From: Minisyncoccota bacterium
Lineage (GTDB): Bacteria; Patescibacteriota; Minisyncoccia; UBA6257; 1-14-0-10-44-23
Reading direction: 5' to 3'
Assembly (NCBI GenBank): GCA_041389085.1
Contig: JAWKSL010000002.1
Span: 14,556 to 78,555 of the forward strand
DNA: 64,000 nt
Below are positions 21,832 to 55,869 of this stretch, piece after piece. Each line of letters starts with the position of its first letter. Within the stretch, counting starts at the first letter, position 1. The position numbers and the translations under genes were made by a program. The notes below the pieces were generated by a model, which saw only the letters and a list, made by a program, of their open reading frames with translations, was not told where the DNA came from and did not search any database.

Positions 21832-21865
21832 TTCAACGGCTCACACATACGTGTGAGCCGTTGAA
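21832..21865. repeat. 34-bp perfect palindrome ttcaacggctcacacATACgtgtgagccgttgaa; member of a dispersed element family (second copy at 50818..50853)
   Basis: Near-identical palindrome is present at both loci, each adjacent to a tRNA gene. Confidence 0.7.
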
Positions 21866-48140: not shown

Positions 48141-49106
48141 ATGAAAAATATCAATACCGCAAGAGATTTCTTTTTGTATCTTTTTGCGACTGTGGCTGCT
48201 ATCTTTAGCGCCGTAAACATTATCGTATTGCTCTGGCAATACATAAATTATTTCTTCCCAGCTCCGTTTAGCTACTATTACGACGGGGTGAGTGGAGCTA
48301 TGAGATTTTCCATCTCAAGCTTAATCATCATCTTCCCACTCTACGTGTGGGTGATGTGGAGTCTTGGAAAAGACATCGATAGGCACCCTGAAAAGAAAGA
48401 CTTCTGGGTGCGCAAGTGGCTTATCTACATAACGCTTTTTGTAGCAGCGATGACCATGATTGTAGACTTGGTTGTTGTACTTAACACTTTCCTTGGCGGA
48501 GACTTTGCCGCTCGCTTTGTATTGAAGGCGCTTGCAGTGCTTGTTGTAGCGGCTGCGGTGTTTTCTTACTACACCTTCAACTTGAAGCGTGAGAGTGGGA
48601 AAGGACTTTCTACTCGAAAGACAATTGCTTGGGTGTCTTCAACAGTGCTTCTTGCTTTGATCGTTGGTGCATTCTTCATCGTAGGTAGCCCTGCGACAAG
48701 CCAAGACAAGCAGCTTGATAGCGAGCGTGTAGCCCACTTGAGCCAAATACAGTGGCAGGTGCTCGACCACTGGCGCCAGTCTGACGTACTTCCAGAAACT
48801 CTCGATGAGCTTAACGATCCTATAATTGGATTTGAAACTCCACGCGATCCAGAGACTCGCGAAGACTACGAATACACTAAGACTTCTGACCTTAGCTTCG
48901 AGCTCTGCGCTACCTTTGCAAGCGAGAGCCGAGACTTCGATCCTGAAGCCACCGATAGCTACGACGAGCGCGCAGCTATCGATTCTGGTGCCTACTATGG
49001 TGGGTATGAAGATTCTCGCTTCTGGCAACACGGAGAAGGAAGAACTTGCTTCGAGAGAACGATAGACCCTGAGAAGCACGCAGCTCCAAAGCCAGTTTAC
49101 TACTAG
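48141..49106 (+). CDS. DUF5671-like membrane protein
   Basis: Four N-terminal TM helices plus an acidic C-terminal extracytoplasmic region. The family call is tentative. Confidence 0.45.
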   Translation: MKNINTARDFFLYLFATVAAIFSAVNIIVLLWQYINYFFPAPFSYYYDGVSGAMRFSISSLIIIFPLYVWVMWSLGKDIDRHPEKKDFWVRKWLIYITLFVAAMTMIVDLVVVLNTFLGGDFAARFVLKALAVLVVAAAVFSYYTFNLKRESGKGLSTRKTIAWVSSTVLLALIVGAFFIVGSPATSQDKQLDSERVAHLSQIQWQVLDHWRQSDVLPETLDELNDPIIGFETPRDPETREDYEYTKTSDLSFELCATFASESRDFDPEATDSYDERAAIDSGAYYGGYEDSRFWQHGEGRTCFERTIDPEKHAAPKPVYY

Positions 49107-49157
49107 TATAAAAATGCTGAGAGCCGCCAACCCTAACGGGATGGCGGCTCTTTGCGT

Positions 49158-50042
49158 TCAGGCGAGCTCTCGTACAGGCGCGGCGGTGAGCCGAATCTGC
49201 ATGCGCTTGCTGCGCATCTTGATGTTTTTGGTGATGCCGAACCACTGGAGGGTCCAGATGAGGTAGCCTGTTGTGTCTACCTGCCACCATTTTTCGCCTT
49301 GGAACATCCACCACTTCTCATGGTGATGGTTGTTGTGCCAGCCCTCGCCACCCACAAGGAGCGCGAGGAGGAAGCTGTTGCGACTGGTGTCTTTCGTCTG
49401 GTAGGGACGCTTGCCCCAGAGGTGTGCCAGAGTGTTGATGGTGCTGGTAGCCTCTCCGAGCACTGCGGTGCTCAGGAAGAAAGAAATCAGCAAGCAACTC
49501 CACCCTCCGTAGAGGTAGCACGCTAGGCCCAGAAGGGCGAAGGGTACTATCTGTAGCCTCTCGAGCCACATGAGCTCGGGGAACTTGGCGAAGTCGGGGA
49601 TCTTCTTCTTGTAGTCGAGCTTGGGCCACCTGCTCAAGAACCAGCCCCACTGAGCGTAGGCAAAGCCGTGCTGAGTCGGGGAGTGCTTGTCGATGGGCTC
49701 GTCGCTGTTCCTGTGGTGGTCGCGATGTTCAGCTGCCCACCAAAGCGGGCCCTTTTGCATCGCGGTGCAACAGATCGCTCCCAGAACGAATTGAGAGAAG
49801 CGCTGGAAGCGCAACTCGTAGGTTCGGTGTGAGAAGTAGCGATGAAGACCGCCGGCTACCGCAAGCGCGCGTACGCGCCAGAGGATGAAGCCAAGCAGGT
49901 AGTCGCGCCAGCTTGCGTCGATGACGCCAGTAGCGTGAAGGACGATGCCCAGAACACCGAGAGTCTTCACGAGGAGGAACCCGATGGTGGTAGGGCTGAG
50001 CCAGTCGACCTTGGGCCGAGCAGCGTTTGTCGCCGTAGTCAT
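49158..50042 (-). CDS. acyl-lipid/acyl-CoA delta-9-type fatty acid desaturase
   Basis: Three His boxes HRYFSH, HRDHHRNSDEP and HNNHHHEKW. Strongly GC-rich relative to the rest of the window. Confidence 0.85.
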   Translation of the reverse strand: MTTATNAARPKVDWLSPTTIGFLLVKTLGVLGIVLHATGVIDASWRDYLLGFILWRVRALAVAGGLHRYFSHRTYELRFQRFSQFVLGAICCTAMQKGPLWWAAEHRDHHRNSDEPIDKHSPTQHGFAYAQWGWFLSRWPKLDYKKKIPDFAKFPELMWLERLQIVPFALLGLACYLYGGWSCLLISFFLSTAVLGEATSTINTLAHLWGKRPYQTKDTSRNSFLLALLVGGEGWHNNHHHEKWWMFQGEKWWQVDTTGYLIWTLQWFGITKNIKMRSKRMQIRLTAAPVRELA

Positions 50043-50111
50043 TTACTGACCTCTCTTTCGGCCTTTGGCCAGTGGTGCAAGGGGAATTCCTTACCCCTCT
50101 AGATTAGCACG

Positions 50112-50739
50112 TTAGCGTTTTCGAATGTAAGGCTTGACTGGTATGAGGAAACAAGACCCTATAAGGGAGATAGCGACTACTGCACCGATCAGGATTGGGA
50201 AGCCTTGGTTTGTCGCTATATACCCTCCGACTGCTGCAAAGGCTGCGCTGGTGATGTCGGTAAGAGTAAAGTAAACGCCCCACTCAACTCCTTCTTTTGC
50301 TCTGTCGATATGGCGGGTAAACATAGCCATGTAGGTAGGGAAGGTGAAGGCAGTGAAAATTCCGTAGATAAACTGCACGAGGTAAAGCTCTCCTGGGGTG
50401 TCGACGATGAGGTAGGTGAGTGGCATAAGGGAAATAAGGAAGGTAAAAACTATCATGAGCCAGAAGTCGTCTTTCTCGCCACGAATTTTGTCGATGATGT
50501 GAGCTATCGGAATTTGTAAAATGCTTTTGGTGAATAGGAAGATGGCAGCGGAAATTCCGGCTACTTCCGCGCTTCCGCCAACGATAAAGTCTTCAACAAA
50601 GAGTGCGAAGATAGGGCCTTAGGAGTCCTGAGGCACCGATGAGGATGGTGTCGGACATAATAAGGAAGCGCACTACGGGGTTTATATCGGCAAGGAAGTA
50701 GTGCATTTTTGATACTGCACGCTTTGTATGGTGGTTCAT
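50112..50739 (-). pseudogene. MFS transporter remnant: only about half a transporter, with a +1 frameshift
   Basis: MNHH...IMSDTILIGASGLL in one frame continues as GPIFALFVEDFIVGG...LIPVKPYIRKR in another. About 215 aa across 6 TM, against roughly 400 aa expected. Confidence 0.5.
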
Positions 50740-50776: not shown

Positions 50777-50980
50777 TTTAACGGCTCACAAACTCCAAGG
50801 AAGTACCGAATCGCGAAGTTTAACGGCTCACACGTACGTGTGAGCCGTTAAACTGGCTAGGCATCCCCAGTCTTGGCTGTCTTTCGCCCTTGCGGGCTCA
50901 AGACGAAGACTGAGAAGCCGTTAAAAGGATTGCCTAGAATGCAGTATTTATGCCTATTCTGTCCGTGTGAGCCGTTTAAC
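50777..50980. repeat. MITE-like element of about 205 bp bounded by 14-bp terminal inverted repeats (tttaacggctcaca / tgtgagccgtttaa). It contains the 36-bp palindrome gtttaacggctcacacgtacgtgtgagccgttaaac (50818..50853), also seen at 21832..21865.
   Basis: Direct sequence comparison; lies immediately upstream of tRNA-Ser(TGA). Confidence 0.55.
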
Positions 50981-51016: not shown

Positions 51017-51107
51017 TTGGAGAGGTGGCTGAGTGGTCGAAGGCGGCTGTCTTGAAAACAGTTGGGGGTTCATAGCCTCCCGTGGGTTCGAATCCCACCC
51101 TCTCCGC
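51017..51107 (+). tRNA. tRNA-Ser (anticodon TGA), type II, CCA encoded
   Basis: Acceptor GGAGAGG/CCTCTCC, anticodon stem GCTGT/ACAGT with loop CTTGAAA, long variable arm, T arm GTGGGTTCGAATCCCAC. Confidence 0.9.
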
Positions 51108-51685
51108 CAAAGTCGAGATCCGAGCGCCCCTTGGGATCTGTTTTCTGTGGATAACTCATCTTGTATTAGCTTTTACTTTTTGTATAATATATATGAACGG
51201 TATGTTCTTTGAAATCAATTGTGTAGAAGTGGTTATTGCTTCGGAGATATAGATAGCTTAGCTTTAAGCTATTTGACGCCTCCTAGATTTGGGAGGGGAT
51301 TTCGCTCCTGGCATCCTTACTAGAGTCTCTCTAGAGTAGTAAGAGATGTCGAAGAGGGGCGATTTTAGGCAACAGAAGCATTTAAAAAAAATGATTGTTT
51401 GTCGGGACTACCCATAACTGCGGTTATTGGTACTACCGGAAGGTTGATCGAACTAATAACCGCGCGAATGGGTGTGTCCAAATATTATTATAAATATAAC
51501 CGTTCACCTTAATATAGAACTATCATGAAACACCTGATTAAAAGAACTGCACAACTGTACCTTCCGTATGACGGGGCGGCTGAATTAAAGCATGAAATTT
51601 TTCAGGGCTTTGTGAATACTACTTCAAGTAGTACGTATCCTGCGAGATTTGCTTTGCTAGCCGCCTCGTAGTTGTTTTTTATATT

Positions 51686-52012
51686 ATGTATTCTTTCCCA
51701 GAGTTGATTAAGAGAATTAGAAATGAGGCCAACCTTACACAGGTTGAATTTGCGAAGGCTCTAAATGTCTCAACTATCCTTGTTTCAATGGTCGAGACTG
51801 GCCAAAAGGAGGTTTCAAAGAAATTTCTTCTTCGACTTGCTGAGAGTTTAAATGTTCATCCGTCGTCTATTACCCCTTTTCTTTTTACTGAAGAAGGTGC
51901 TTCTATTGACCAACTTTCTACTATAGAAAGAAAATTTGTTGTGTGGGGTGAGAGAATGCAGGATTATTTAATACGAGATCGAGCACATCTTTTGCGCCAG
52001 TATGCGAATTAG
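51686..52012 (+). CDS. XRE-family helix-turn-helix protein
   Basis: ELIKRIRNEANLTQVEFAKALNVSTILVSMVETGQKEVS is the canonical Cro/C1-type HTH. Overlaps the RT gene by 11 nt. Confidence 0.7.
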   Translation: MYSFPELIKRIRNEANLTQVEFAKALNVSTILVSMVETGQKEVSKKFLLRLAESLNVHPSSITPFLFTEEGASIDQLSTIERKFVVWGERMQDYLIRDRAHLLRQYAN

Positions 52013-53003
52013 ACGGTACCCTAAGCTGGGGATAAGAAGCAAAAATGAGCTCGCAAAGCGCTTAAGTCACAAAAATTTTTCTACAAAAAATTCTCTTGCC
52101 CTTGTGAATGACGTTATTTCTAATTTCGATTTTTATTGGCATGACAATAAAAAGGAGTCAAATCCTCAAAAAAAGAAATATGTGCGCAGTGCAAAGTATA
52201 GCCCACTAGGAAAATTACTTACTAAAATTAACTCTAGAATTCTTGCTCCTTACGACAAGCTATTGCCAGGATTTATCTTTGGAGGCGTTCAGGGATTAAA
52301 CCATAAAGCGGCAGTGGCTTATCTCCTTGGGCAAAAAAGAAAGCGAGTTCTTTTGAAGGTGGATATCTCTAGGTTTTTTGAACAGATTAAAGATGAGAGG
52401 GTTTTCGATTTTTTTAAGCATAAGTGTGAATGTGGGGTGAGAGGGGCCAAGCTTTTAGCTAGTTTGTGTACCGTTCCCATTGGTCCTAAAAACTTTCCTA
52501 CGTCACATATCAGGACTATTGCTCGTGGCTTTGCTACGTCTCCTCGTCTCGCAATCTGGTGCAATTTAGACACTTTTATTAAACTTGACCGTCTTATTCG
52601 CACTGAATTGCGTGGTAAGGATCCGAGAATTGCAATTTATGTTGATGATATAGGCGTGACTGCAAGCAGAGTTTCAGTTGAGCAAATGGCTCTTCTTTAC
52701 AAAAAAATCGAAAAATTACTCCAGGAGGATAGAAATCAGGGCCTGCCACTTAATGCAGAGAAAACAAGAATAATAGAGCATACTGGGAAAACTTTTGACG
52801 GAAATGGTGTATTAATAACTAGTGAGTGGGGCTATGAGCACTTAGGGGCGCAAATGAAAAGAAATTCCTTAACGATTGGGAAAAAGACAAAAGCAAAATT
52901 AATTGATGTGACACAGAAGTGGGAGCGTGGTGAAGGTGGTATGCTGGTTAAGCTTCGTCGCAAAGCTTTATTGCGTCATAAGAGGTACATGGAGTCGGCT
53001 TAA
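52002..53003 (+). CDS. reverse transcriptase, 333 aa, RT domain only; retron-/Abi-/defence-associated type
   Basis: RT motifs in order: motif 1/2 YVRSAKYSPLGKLLTKINSRIL and PGFIFGGVQGLNHKAAVAY; motif A LLKVDISRFFEQI; motif B ARGFATSPRLAIWCN; motif C IAIYVDDIGV; motif D/E GLPLNAEKTRII. No maturase or endonuclease extension. Confidence 0.75.
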   Translation: MRIRRYPKLGIRSKNELAKRLSHKNFSTKNSLALVNDVISNFDFYWHDNKKESNPQKKKYVRSAKYSPLGKLLTKINSRILAPYDKLLPGFIFGGVQGLNHKAAVAYLLGQKRKRVLLKVDISRFFEQIKDERVFDFFKHKCECGVRGAKLLASLCTVPIGPKNFPTSHIRTIARGFATSPRLAIWCNLDTFIKLDRLIRTELRGKDPRIAIYVDDIGVTASRVSVEQMALLYKKIEKLLQEDRNQGLPLNAEKTRIIEHTGKTFDGNGVLITSEWGYEHLGAQMKRNSLTIGKKTKAKLIDVTQKWERGEGGMLVKLRRKALLRHKRYMESA

Positions 53004-53012
53004 TCAATACAA

Positions 53013-53040
53013 AAAAGGCCCTTGCGGGCCTTTTTAGTTT
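53013..53040. terminator. bidirectional terminator aaaaaaggcccttgcgggccttttt; the same hairpin recurs at 54475 and 55927
   Basis: Perfect hairpin with flanking A- and T-runs. Confidence 0.6.
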
Positions 53041-53162
53041 TCTTAGAGGTACTCGTTGATGGGACTTTGATTTTATTGTCAGTTTTAATAGCTGTGGTAG
53101 GATCTTTTTAGTTCATTTCACCCCGAAATTAGTTTCGGGTCAAACCACGAAAGTGAGGCACT

Positions 53163-54417
53163 ATGCGTACTGCACTTGCAGCTTTCCTTGTAGTTCTGTG
53201 TAGCCTTTGGGCTGCCGCAGCGGCTGTTGCCGATCCGGTGACGGTGCGTGTGAAGAGCAACGATGGCTCCTACTCATACGTGACGCGAGACCTTCCAGCT
53301 TCGAGCTGTGAGGTTTGGACCATCGATTTTCGGCGCGATGACGGAACGATTTGGGGCAGTGAATCTGCCCGGCCCGATCGCGCTGGCGTCGAAGATCGGG
53401 CAGCGAAGTACAACAACTTCCTGAGTTGGATCGGACAATCTCGGGAAGTCGAAGTCGAAGGAGCACTACAACAACCCCTCTCCTGCGTACTGTTCGGTTT
53501 TCAGTAGTGATACTGCAATGCTGGACAAGTTGCGTGGAGACGGGGAGGTGAATTTTCCATTCAAGACGTTGGCAAAAGCTCAGAATGAGGTCTTGGAAAG
53601 GATCCGAAACTATGTGGCAGGGGCAAGGACCTACTACGAGCAGTTCAAAGCTGCTCCCGGGCGGTCTTTCATGGAGTACGGGCGAGTCTTGGCTGACGGA
53701 ATGGCTAAGACGCAGAAGATTGAGCAGGAGCTGCTCACGCCCGCTCTGAGGTTGCCATTTGAGGTGATGAATCCCGATGGTTTTGCTCCTTTCCTAACTG
53801 GCATCGACGAGGAGGGTGTCACTTGGATGCGCTCTTGGGCTCGCGCAGTGCGAGCTGAGGAGCCGAGAATTCAGCAAGGGATTCGGACTATTCAGCAAGT
53901 GATGCGCGATAATCAAAAAGATGCACGCGAGAACTCTCGTGAGTATGACGCTGCAGTTGCTAGGATTGAGCGTCTTCGGCGCGACATCCGCAACGCCCGT
54001 GATCCTCGTATGATCGACATCCTTGAGAGGGATTTGGCGCGAGCCGAAGAGAAGCGTGACTACGCCATGGAAAGGCAATGGAGTTTTGATGAGCAGAGGG
54101 AGGCAAATGAAGAGCGAATCCGCAATCTGCGTGAGCGTGAGCTCGAGGTTCCCGAGAAGCTTTCGTTCATTCTTCAATTTTCCTACAGCTGTGGTTGCGC
54201 ACTGGAAGTGAGCGAGGTGTTTGAAGATGGCGATAGGGAGGGGGATGGTGTGGAGCGACTTAGCGATCGTTGCTCTGTATGTGGCGGTAGCGGTAAGGTT
54301 GATGTCATGGAGAACGGTGAGCTTTGGCGAGACTACATCAAGCGAATCCCAATCTCCGCGCGACCTCCGGCGCGGCGGATTACCTGCCCTGAGTGCGGTG
54401 GCACTGGCAAGCGGTGA
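53163..54417 (+). pseudogene. secreted protein with charged coiled-coil region and C-terminal DnaJ-type CxxCxGxG zinc-finger motifs, copy 1; frameshifted (split 53163..53507 and 53518..54417)
   Basis: N-terminal 45 aa are identical to copy 2. An insertion/duplication around 53400..53480 (KYNNF... versus EHYNNPSP) shifts the frame. C-terminus CSVCGGSGKV...CPECGGTGKR. Confidence 0.5.
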
Positions 54418-54474
54418 CCCACCTTGTGAGGCCTGGCGTTCTACGGAACGCCAGGCCTTTCGTTTTTTAATATC

Positions 54475-54765
54475 AAAAAAGGCCCTTGCGGGCCTTTTTA
54501 GTTTTCTTAGAGGTACTCGTTGATGGGACTTTGATTTTATTGTCAGTTTTAATAGCTGTGGTAGGATCTTTTTAGTTCATTTCACCCCGAAATTAGTTTC
54601 GGGTCAAACCACGAAAGTGAGGGCACTATGCGTACTGCACTTGCAGCTTTCCTTGTAGTTCTGTGTAGCCTTTGGGCTGCCGCAGCGGCTGTTGCCGATC
54701 CGGTGACGGTGCGTGTGAAGAGCAACGATGGCTCCTACTCATACGTGACGCGAGACCTCCCGGTC
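54475..54765 (+). repeat. about 290-bp near-identical direct repeat of 53013..53300, covering the terminator, the promoter region and the first about 45 codons
   Basis: Direct comparison. Both repeats include a truncated '...INEYL*' 3' gene end on the minus strand; an intact copy of that gene lies at 55967..56782. Confidence 0.8.
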
Positions 54766-55869
54766 TCAAGCTGTGTTCTCTGGACTGTCGACTTCCGTCG
54801 AGATGATGGAACAGTTTGGGGTAGCGAGTCTGACTCTGACAAGGCTAGGGTTGAAAAGAGGGCGGCAGCATCTCGCGCGTTTGTTAGTTTGATAGACGCT
54901 CTTGCGAAGTCTTCTTCACAAGAACACTATAACAACCCCTCTCCTATGTATTGCTCGGTTTTTAGTAGTGATACTAAGATCTTGGGTAAATTGGGTGGAG
55001 ATGGTGAGGGAAATTTTCCATTCAAGGTCTTTAGCAATGCCCGGGCCGATGTTCGTTCAAGAATTGTAAATTTTTCAACTGGCGTGCGAACTTACTACGA
55101 ACAGTTCAAGTCTGCTCCCGGGCGGTCTTTCATGGAGTATGGGCGCGCCTTGGTTGATGGAATGGCAAAGGTGCAGAAAATTGAGCAACAAATGCTGTCC
55201 CCATCTCTCAGCTTGCCGTTTGAGCTTACGAGCTCGAATGGCTTTGAGCCGTTCTTTATTGGACTCGACCGTGAGGGTACTGCGCGGATGCGTTCTTGGG
55301 CTCGTTCTATCCAAGGAGAGGAGGCGATCATCCAAAAGGAGATTGAGACTGTCCGGTGGGCAATGCGTGAAAACAAAAAGCTCGCCGGCCTCTACTCACG
55401 TGAGCATGATGTTGCGGTTGCGAAGATTGAGCGCCTTAGGCGCAGGCTGCGCTCGGAGCGCGATCCTGAAAGGATTGATGCTTTGAAGCAGGATTTAGAT
55501 CTCGCAATTGAAAAGCGTGATCGCGCTCTTGAGCGGCGCTGGGAGTTTGAACAGATTGAAGATGACGATGAGGAGAAGCTTTTCGATCTCCGTGCGCGCG
55601 AAGGTAAAATTCCTGATAGGCTTTCATTTGTTTCTAGTTTTGCTCGTAGCTGCGGCTTCGAGTTAGATGCTGAGACGGTCTTTGGTAGTCCCGACCCAGG
55701 TCAAGAAGCGAGCGGGGATAGTTGTCCTACCTGCAAAGGCACTGGACGAATTCATCCTCAACGTCGTTCTTCTTCGGACGATGCTCCTCCTGGCTCTAGT
55801 ACAGCCAGTCCTGCACTTTCGGAGTCTGGAGAAACTTGCCCCACATGCGGTGGCACTGGCAAGCGGTGA
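54628..55869 (+). CDS. secreted protein with charged coiled-coil region and two C-terminal CxxCxGxG zinc-finger motifs, copy 2, intact (413 aa)
   Basis: Signal peptide MRTALAAFLVVLCSLWAAAAAVA; ER/K-rich helical region; CPTCKGTGRI...CPTCGGTGKR. GC-rich. Confidence 0.55.
   Translation: MRTALAAFLVVLCSLWAAAAAVADPVTVRVKSNDGSYSYVTRDLPVSSCVLWTVDFRRDDGTVWGSESDSDKARVEKRAAASRAFVSLIDALAKSSSQEHYNNPSPMYCSVFSSDTKILGKLGGDGEGNFPFKVFSNARADVRSRIVNFSTGVRTYYEQFKSAPGRSFMEYGRALVDGMAKVQKIEQQMLSPSLSLPFELTSSNGFEPFFIGLDREGTARMRSWARSIQGEEAIIQKEIETVRWAMRENKKLAGLYSREHDVAVAKIERLRRRLRSERDPERIDALKQDLDLAIEKRDRALERRWEFEQIEDDDEEKLFDLRAREGKIPDRLSFVSSFARSCGFELDAETVFGSPDPGQEASGDSCPTCKGTGRIHPQRRSSSDDAPPGSSTASPALSESGETCPTCGGTGKR

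Follow-up and report, generated by a model that had tools for sequence, protein, structure and literature searches.

Type VI retrons, which are defined by a clade-3 reverse transcriptase (RT), a 91–110-aa Cro/C1-type helix-turn-helix (HTH) protein, and often a small auxiliary protein (Mestre et al., PMC7736814), are the least understood retrons, and how their complementary DNA (cDNA) switches on a toxin is still a question in two preprints of 2025–2026. In Retron-Vpa2, the RT, the HTH protein, and a hybrid RNA of ∼470 nt, in which msr-msd is joined to the coding sequence of the SP toxin, form one complex; no multicopy single-stranded DNA (msDNA) is detectable at rest, the HTH protein represses reverse transcription, phage recombination proteins cause msDNA to accumulate, and derepression of SP translation needs msDNA (bioRxiv 10.1101/2025.10.22.683967). 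In Retron-Sen3, the HTH protein is the SP antitoxin and binds the RT, and the trigger is inhibition of RecBCD (bioRxiv 10.64898/2026.04.27.721009). Here we report a related locus in a 64 000-nt stretch of DNA from a Minisyncoccota bacterium (GenBank assembly GCA_041389085.1, contig JAWKSL010000002.1, positions 14 556–78 555), hereafter the window, in whose own numbering all positions are given. We consider it highly probable, taking the explanation as a whole, that the locus is a Type VI retron, that is, an anti-phage toxin system coupled to an RT, and that it belongs to a divergent clade widespread among Patescibacteria. Because a Type VI retron of Candidatus Levybacteria (Mestre-729) is already catalogued (Khan et al. 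census, PMC10849725), the Type VI kind is not new to bacteria of the candidate phyla radiation (CPR), and the locus adds a divergent-clade member to an already known kind. An earlier note on the window, made from its letters alone, had called the effector logic of the module unknown; for Type VI, that logic is described in the Retron-Vpa2 and Retron-Sen3 preprints.

Gene layout and protein classification

The core of the locus consists of two genes, which lie on the plus strand, as do all features of the retron unit located below. An XRE/Cro-type HTH gene at 51686–52012 (108 aa; Pfam HTH_3, 5e-12) overlaps by 11 nt an RT gene at 52002–53003 (333 aa; Pfam RVT_1, 3e-10) with a YVDD active site, and is preceded by ∼545 bp of highly structured sequence. 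The coordinates, the sizes, the overlap, and the YVDD motif had all been given in the earlier note and were reproduced by open reading frame (ORF) calls and Pfam; the note's view that the RT lacks a maturase or endonuclease extension also holds, with Pfam detecting no domain beyond RVT_1. The same note had described the upstream sequence as ∼570 bp of AT-rich non-coding DNA. The AT-richness stands (GC 0.39 for the retron unit compared to 0.466 for the whole window), whereas the non-coding label does not, as a conserved micro-ORF lies inside. In public annotation the RT has only 299 aa, from a GTG at 52104. We judge ATG 52002 to be the better call for the RT start, because it overlaps the stop codon of the HTH gene and members of the family keep residues 6–34 of the 333-aa protein.

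Profile and structure comparisons both place the RT nearest to retron RTs. Among PADLOC profiles it matches RT_VI first (84.7 bits, 1.6e-24), with RT_IV next (48.2 bits) and RT_VI ahead of every defense-associated RT (DRT) or Abi profile by >50 bits; the HTH protein matches HTH_VI first (46.5 bits, 7.7e-13). For the AlphaFold2 model of the RT (39 homologues, pLDDT 95), Foldseek returns retron RTs at each of the first 12 ranks in the PDB, Eco2/Ec67, Ec86, Eco8, type I-A, and Eco7 among them, at TM 0.56–0.72; DRT9 stands at rank 13, and R2, G2L4, diversity-generating retroelement (DGR), and group II RTs fall below the retron RTs. The length of the HTH protein and its overlap with the RT gene agree with the published definition of Type VI (PMC7736814). 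The gene order, a small ORF (SP in the known systems) followed by HTH and RT genes that overlap, is that of the Retron-Sen3/cl2075 lineage, which includes the bona fide Type VI retron of Yersinia phage vB_YenM_56.17 (L083; an ORF of 54 aa, then a regulator of 105 aa and an RT whose gene overlaps it, scoring 346 bits against RT_VI and 121 against HTH_VI). The Type VI label that the earlier note had offered is borne out by the leading profiles, the closest folds, and the Yersinia-phage gene order, to which a retron-like closing stem in the upstream RNA can be added. The profile search that the note had proposed, against retron, UG/DRT, Abi, and group II models, put RT_VI clearly first.

Structured upstream RNA

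Nucleotide conservation between the window and its relatives starts at 51141, directly after the tRNA-Ser(TGA) gene (51019–51109), and is concentrated in a promoter-like block at 51141–51220 and a second block at 51395–51579. The predicted fold of 51230–51700 has a free energy of −151.8 kcal/mol (z = −5.96), and 0 of 100 dinucleotide shuffles fold as well. Structure was then evaluated, by RNAalifold and for each helix named below, on an alignment of 23 sequences (A2), in which 86.3% of cells form a standard pair; 500 shuffles give 79.1%, with none of the 500 reaching the observed value, and sliding the partners by 1–3 columns leaves only 39–47% paired. Changes on both sides are found in 58 of the 85 pairs. 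A fold and covariation search of this kind had been suggested in the earlier note, whose inverted repeats all turn out to lie in predicted helices (51571–82/51658–69, which encloses an apical stem at 51618–23/51627–32; 51419–31/51452–64; and 51310–22/51337–50), and helices of the RNA do covary across relatives.

The 5′ two-thirds of the RNA are predicted to form an msr-msd-like non-coding domain (51194–51506) that holds five stem-loops (51250–75, 51277–98, 51302–62 with a variable apex, 51368–403, and 51405–79) and is closed by an a2/a1-like stem in which 51194–51201 (TGAACGGT) pairs with 51499–51506 (ACCGTTCA). This stem covaries strongly: ∼13 complementary haplotypes occur at the same position across loci, and 7/7 pairs are changed on both sides in A2. 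In canonical retrons, the branching G sits at a matching position after a2. Here the candidate is G 51204, 3 nt after the a2 arm, in a column that is G in 19/23 sequences (2–3 nt after a2). Both of the landmarks that the earlier note had proposed to look for, a1/a2-type repeats and a priming G, therefore have counterparts, the former covarying and the latter as a candidate. The hairpin nearest to a1, SL-E (51405–51479), is long and conserved, with 93.6% of its main-stem cells paired and 9/11 pairs changed on both sides in A2, and its position next to a1 makes it the most likely msd template.

Two long-range helices tie this non-coding domain to the 15 nt that immediately precede a toxin-bearing hairpin. 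In the first, H2, 51216–51222 (CAATTGT) pairs with 51551–51557 (ACAACTG), the 3′ arm being the 7 nt just 5′ of a site that we call S; 85.7% of H2 cells are paired in A2, and across 56 unique loci the figure is 94%, with both-sided changes in 6/7 pairs. In the second, the apical loop of SL-E (loop L, CGGAAGGT, 51437–51444, with an invariant ACCGG) pairs with S (ACCTTCCG, 51559–51566) in an 8-bp pseudoknot or kissing contact. The L–S contact is paired in 100% of cells in A2 and is represented by at least 8 distinct compensatory haplotypes in ∼50 loci, divergent loci carrying unrelated but complementary 8–10-mers at the same L and S offsets. Relative to the micro-ORF ATG, site S is 33 nt upstream, and its distance to the toxin arm is 5 nt. 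This arm, the 3′ third of the RNA, is a hairpin of ∼100 nt (51571–51669) in which the micro-ORF is contained; the start codon is in the stem, and a T-run (51674–79) comes after the hairpin. The basal stem of this arm is 99.3% paired, with 9/12 pairs changed on both sides, and its apical stem covaries too. Arm and T-run together may act as a terminator or attenuator that sets the 3′ end of the RNA.

The putative promoter lies at 51161–51188 (−35 TTGTAT at 51161–66, a 16-nt spacer, and −10 TATAAT at 51183–88), with a predicted transcript start at ∼51195. A consensus scan missed it, its −35 agreeing with the consensus at 3/6 positions only; we infer its function from the alignment of 23 loci, in which −35 TTGnnn and −10 TATAAT/TATACT line up. 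Because this promoter is conserved and the toxin arm is a hairpin followed by a T-run, we also infer that msr-msd-like domain and toxin arm form a single hybrid transcript of ∼490 nt (∼51195–51685). An exact match to the DnaA-box consensus 9-mer, TGTGGATAA, stands at 51146–51154, 6 nt upstream of the −35, and recurs at the same promoter offset in 18/53 unique related loci, with one more carrying it inverted. It could link retron transcription to DnaA or the replication state, or be the operator of the HTH protein, and may also lie outside the retron mechanism altogether.

In its overall architecture, the locus resembles Retron-Vpa2, of the “Large” lineage, in having a structured RNA with an embedded small ORF, here the candidate toxin, followed by HTH and then RT, a predicted hybrid RNA of ∼490 nt compared to ∼470 nt, a toxin coding sequence forming its own hairpin arm, an a1/a2-like long-range stem, and a short conserved element in the msd loop proposed to contact the region that controls toxin translation. 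The contact itself differs. Retron-Vpa2 has a 7-nt direct repeat, by which the cDNA would pair with the riboregulator, whereas in the clade reported here the loop is complementary to the leader, allowing RNA–RNA pairing before reverse transcription. A direct repeat of CGGTTAT type is present in the window as well (51231–37 and 51421–27, the latter in the ascending strand of SL-E), and its 5′ copy (51233–51237) can instead pair with the descending strand of SL-E (51455–51459), with 5/5 pairs changed on both sides; such covariation implies either two mutually exclusive predicted folds or a site open to competition by cDNA. A 3′-end wrap-back helix like that of Retron-Vpa2 was sought as well, and only a 3-bp invariant GAC/GTC contact was found, too weak to claim. 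We found no mention of these features of the clade's RNA, or of its micro-ORF, in the Retron-Vpa2 and Retron-Sen3 preprints or in a literature search on Patescibacteria retrons.

A conserved micro-ORF, interrupted in the window

The toxin candidate is an SP-like micro-ORF (51592–51660) that lies in frame +1 of a longer, 48-aa ORF (frame 0, 51525–51671). Among relatives it encodes a peptide of 21–31 aa with the consensus MKWLRxLRIILQIIRILxDLLR and begins with ATG in 54/58 unique loci, the most divergent included. Its coding signature is consistent: codon variability follows the order position 3 > position 1 > position 2 in every divergence bin, and synonymous changes make up 0.41–0.52 of changed codons in pairs of at least 60% nucleotide identity. 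The peptides are cationic, amphipathic, and hydrophobic: their grand average of hydropathy (GRAVY) is +1.17, their net charge is +4, I/L/V/M/F/W make up 64% of residues, and the hydrophobic moment is 0.69. In hydrophobicity they are thus close to the C-terminal helix of the Yersinia SP (GRAVY 1.28), and the Retron-Sen3/cl2075 lineage shares with them an SP coding region under RNA structural selection and a conserved non-coding RNA (ncRNA) upstream. In size they differ, SP having 54–79 aa with a lysine-rich N-terminus in that lineage and 55 aa in Retron-Vpa2. The type I loci hok/mok/sok offer another parallel, with a tiny hydrophobic toxin whose start is buried in an mRNA hairpin and a longer, out-of-frame ORF that overlaps it. 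The likeness is one of logic and not of homology: there is no antisense RNA here, and control would pass through RT, cDNA, and HTH protein. If the micro-ORF is indeed the effector, the toxin is concealed out of frame within a longer, non-conserved ORF, and gene callers and human readers alike would choose the wrong frame for it.

In the window itself, the micro-ORF is broken by an in-frame TGA at 51613–51615 (codon 8), where two relatives carry TGG, and its translation is MKFFRAL*ILLQVVRILRDLLC*. TGA is an ordinary stop in this genome, ending 11 of the 52 long ORFs in a window that is 82% coding under the standard code, and the window copy may therefore be disarmed. This leads to the alternative that the module has decayed in the window genome to a remnant, its toxin ORF broken and its defense function gone, a possibility that we take seriously but think rather doubtful. 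A genuine stop at codon 8 speaks for it, as does a second locus, L049, where the micro-ORF is likewise interrupted (MKK*LRIL...). Set against these are a RT, an HTH gene, a promoter, and covarying RNA pairings that are every one intact, and a peptide downstream of the stop that stays near the consensus, so the change would be recent, a variant or error of metagenome assembly, or read through. Loci L011 and L052 show the converse pattern, with early stops in frame 0 and frame +1 intact, and the stops in all three of these relatives fit frame +1 as the frame under selection, with occasional loss of the toxin. Taken by itself, the window carries a modest message: a recognizable member of a known family, with a toxin gene that is possibly broken.

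A different objection is that the true effector, and SP counterpart, is the 48-aa frame-0 ORF and that constraints on the RNA have produced the frame +1 peptide only incidentally, which we regard as improbable. Frame 0 is open for at least 49 codons in 63/63 unique loci, with an ATG, and ends 5–20 nt before the HTH gene; as an ORF of 44–61 aa it does so in nearly all loci, close in size to the SP of known Type VI retrons (54–79 aa), and in 47/48 loci two RNA anchors are a multiple of 3 nt apart. Open-frame length proved to be a weak test of coding, however, with controls nearly as long: at least 44 open codons occur by chance in 71% of minus-strand controls. Coding in frame +1 also accounts for most of the multiple-of-3 spacing, apart from the stretch from S to the frame +1 ATG. 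In frame 0 variability is lowest at the third codon position, and only 0.05–0.19 of changed codons are synonymous, a pattern without sign of selection on the protein; upstream of the frame +1 ATG, the two bins of greater divergence lack periodicity. Its apparent motifs are RNA pairing sites with non-conservative residue changes; in “ELCLPY”, for example, LPY is site S, and the residues L/Y/H/F/R vary as the RNA pair covaries. Nor is the frame-0 peptide hydrophobic (GRAVY −0.06). We had at one stage entertained frame 0 as the SP toxin and dropped it after the codon-position and synonymous counts and the finding of the frame +1 peptide; it may instead be a leader ORF or a by-product.

Weighing the Type VI assignment

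Several observations weigh against a Type VI retron with a micro-ORF toxin. The profile scores are low, at 85 bits against RT_VI compared to 329–346 for canonical members (∼330–346 for two proteobacterial reference RTs, Vpa2 not among them) and 46 bits against HTH_VI compared to 114–120. The retron signature motifs NAxxH and VTG are only partly kept: NARKH of the Yersinia RT aligns with a family xAVxH (in the window, AAVAY), and its ITG with HTG. In addition, BLASTP finds no similarity between the HTH protein and that of the Yersinia phage. In an Rfam scan, the tRNA alone reaches its gathering score, with no retron family represented. The small peptides have no match in PADLOC and fall in no known SP cluster, and the window's own copy of the toxin ORF carries the nonsense codon described above. 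Finally, Mestre-729, the one CPR Type VI retron assayed, gave no reverse-transcribed DNA (RT-DNA) on polyacrylamide gel electrophoresis (PAGE) (PMC10849725). The window family shares with Mestre-729 its Type VI classification and its origin in a CPR bacterium, and differs from it in that the published predicted ncRNA of Mestre-729, which was the one used in the assay, has no similarity to the hybrid RNA of the window family. Another Type VI entry in the supplement of the same census, number 703 from Psychrobacter, has a predicted “ncRNA” whose translation appears to give a segment of the HTH protein. The absence of RT-DNA for entries 703 and 729 could, on comparison of these sequences, reflect wrongly chosen RNA segments.

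Because of the low profile scores, an RT identity to the Yersinia phage RT of only 25% (E = 1e-14), and the lack of an HTH match by BLASTP, the window RT and HTH protein are distant members of Type VI. The Retron-Sen3/cl2075 lineage differs in other respects as well: it is found in Proteobacteria, often in P2-like prophage hotspots, and single-stranded DNA of Retron-Sen3 is made constitutively.

Part of this evidence could also be read as pointing to a defense RT that is not a true retron, working as UG/DRT or Abi systems do, with the RNA as a scaffold or some other template and no 2′-OH-branched msDNA. The weak RT_VI scores, weak matches to Drt3a and AbiA, DRT9 at fold rank 13, the incomplete NAxxH, and the lack of RT-DNA from the Levybacteria representative are all in its favor. 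Yet RT_VI exceeds the DRT and Abi profiles by >50 bits, the first 12 structural matches are all retron RTs, an a2/a1 stem with a conserved G is the priming architecture of retrons, and known Type VI retrons give little or no msDNA at rest, so we think this alternative a shade less probable still than an effector in frame 0. The NCBIfam matches of the RT (retron St85, group II, Drt3a, and AbiA) are all far below their cut-offs. A group II intron or DGR RT is effectively refuted: the weak group_II_RT_mat match (32.6 bits, cut-off 300) and a group II maturase as the sole PDB match of the RT family profile (E = 5.6e-4; the single RT sequence matched nothing in the PDB) stand against the lack of any maturase or endonuclease domain, of an intron RNA in the Rfam scan, and of a template/variable repeat pair of DGR type among the repeats of the window, as well as the ranking of group II and DGR RTs beneath all retron RTs in the fold search, and the earlier note was right to set both classes aside.

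A possible RNA switch

The data show which parts make up the Type VI retron proposed here, how these are linked, how the RNA pairs, and the micro-ORF's coding status, whereas the steps of the following mechanism are drawn by analogy with Retron-Vpa2 and Retron-Sen3. RT, HTH protein, and hybrid RNA would assemble into a complex that keeps the peptide toxin off at rest, either through an RNA fold that blocks translation or through neutralization of the toxin by the HTH protein, or both, and the HTH protein may also restrain reverse transcription. On phage cues, cDNA (msDNA) would build up from the a1-proximal hairpin. Copying of SL-E, or masking by msDNA, would then free S from loop L, and with it H2, remodel the toxin leader, and allow translation, and the peptide would harm the membrane and halt growth before the phage cycle completes.

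We propose tentatively, and with more doubt than confidence, that the RT-sensitive element in this scheme is the pseudoknot between the msd-hairpin loop and the toxin leader, such that copying into cDNA, or titration by it, would turn on a toxin of ∼22 residues. The cDNA of loop L would have the same sequence as leader site S. Weighing against the proposal are the 33 nt that separate S from the toxin AUG, across which release of S would have to be coupled to opening of the hairpin. If correct, this wiring would be unlike the direct-repeat model of Retron-Vpa2 and would amount to a minimal, fully sequence-defined case of translation controlled by cDNA. Many natural variants exist within the clade, covariation alone being enough to define three long-range pairings and a 21–31-aa toxin ORF, and the pairings so defined provide precise sites for compensatory mutagenesis.

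Distribution and genomic neighborhood of the family

A homologue search with the RT at E ≤ 1e-10 returned 433 proteins. The best 120 of these are 53–60% identical to the query, and those named among them are all from Patescibacteria (Paceibacterota and Saccharimonadales/Saccharibacteria), bar one labeled “bacterium”; the window itself has a 100% match in a Candidatus Paceibacterota metagenome-assembled genome, and a scan of a genome collection with a single-protein query gave one locus, from Wolfebacteria. Judging from these homologues, the module is common in Patescibacteria. The earlier note had expected such an RT system to be unusual in a CPR-like genome, an expectation with which neither this count nor the catalogued Levybacteria retron agrees. 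Ultra-small, host-dependent Patescibacteria commonly retain a putative 1.9-kb RT defense module. No relatives of the family were found in a search of IMG/VR viral contigs.

We compared 81 related loci, 79 of them with upstream DNA, and in 79/79 of the latter the HTH gene is immediately 5′ of the RT gene, which answers the note's question of whether the two genes are consistently linked. The conserved unit is the module alone, no neighboring gene being common to more than 6/65 loci; the commonest neighbor cluster, a DNA methyltransferase, is present in those 6/65. The adjacency to tRNA-Ser(TGA) that the earlier note had pointed out is real at the window locus, where the tRNA gene ends at 51109, but is not a family trait: a tRNA or tmRNA gene lies within 2.5 kb in only 9/40 loci, and its identity differs among them. 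Across loci, tRNA-targeted insertion is not supported.

Flanking DNA

Neither an integrase nor att-like repeats are present at the unit. Its low GC supports horizontal acquisition. The earlier note had described a repeat-bounded island, a description that is not supported: both copies of the near-identical repeat of ∼295 nt that starts 7 nt after the RT stop codon are 3′ of the retron and do not flank it. The repeat has a 149-nt exact core (53010–53158 and 54474–54622), followed by 211 nt at 90% identity, and arises from the downstream gene being present in two tandem copies (53010–54417 and 54474–55869). An intrinsic terminator hairpin at 53012–53035, found by a terminator scan and repeated with the same sequence at 54476–54499, is part of the upstream region of this duplicated gene. 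The duplicated terminator module of the earlier note is therefore present downstream as stated; it is the start of the gene duplication and not a flank of the retron.

The product of the duplicated gene looks secreted, carries two CxxCxGxG motifs at its C-terminus, and matches nothing in Pfam. Copy 1 is split by a frameshift into ORFs of 114 and 299 aa, copy 2 has 413 aa, and it is the first 295 nt of the duplicates, terminator hairpin and 5′ untranslated region included, that are nearly identical. On the other side of the unit, palindromic TTTAACGGCTCACA/TGTGAGCCGTTAAA units give 6 matches, at 50777–50979 and 21832–21865, compared to 0.5 expected; four are just 5′ of tRNA-Ser(TGA) and two just 5′ of tRNA-Trp. 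They look more like an element that recurs beside tRNA genes than like a miniature inverted-repeat transposable element (MITE) tied to the retron, next to which the earlier note had placed a MITE-like element. Farther upstream, a GC-rich patch (49000–50456; 0.55–0.60 compared to 0.47) contains a fatty-acid desaturase gene on the minus strand (49158–50042) and, beside it on the same strand, a 114-aa fragment of a major facilitator superfamily (MFS) transporter (50112–50456) that is probably a gene remnant.

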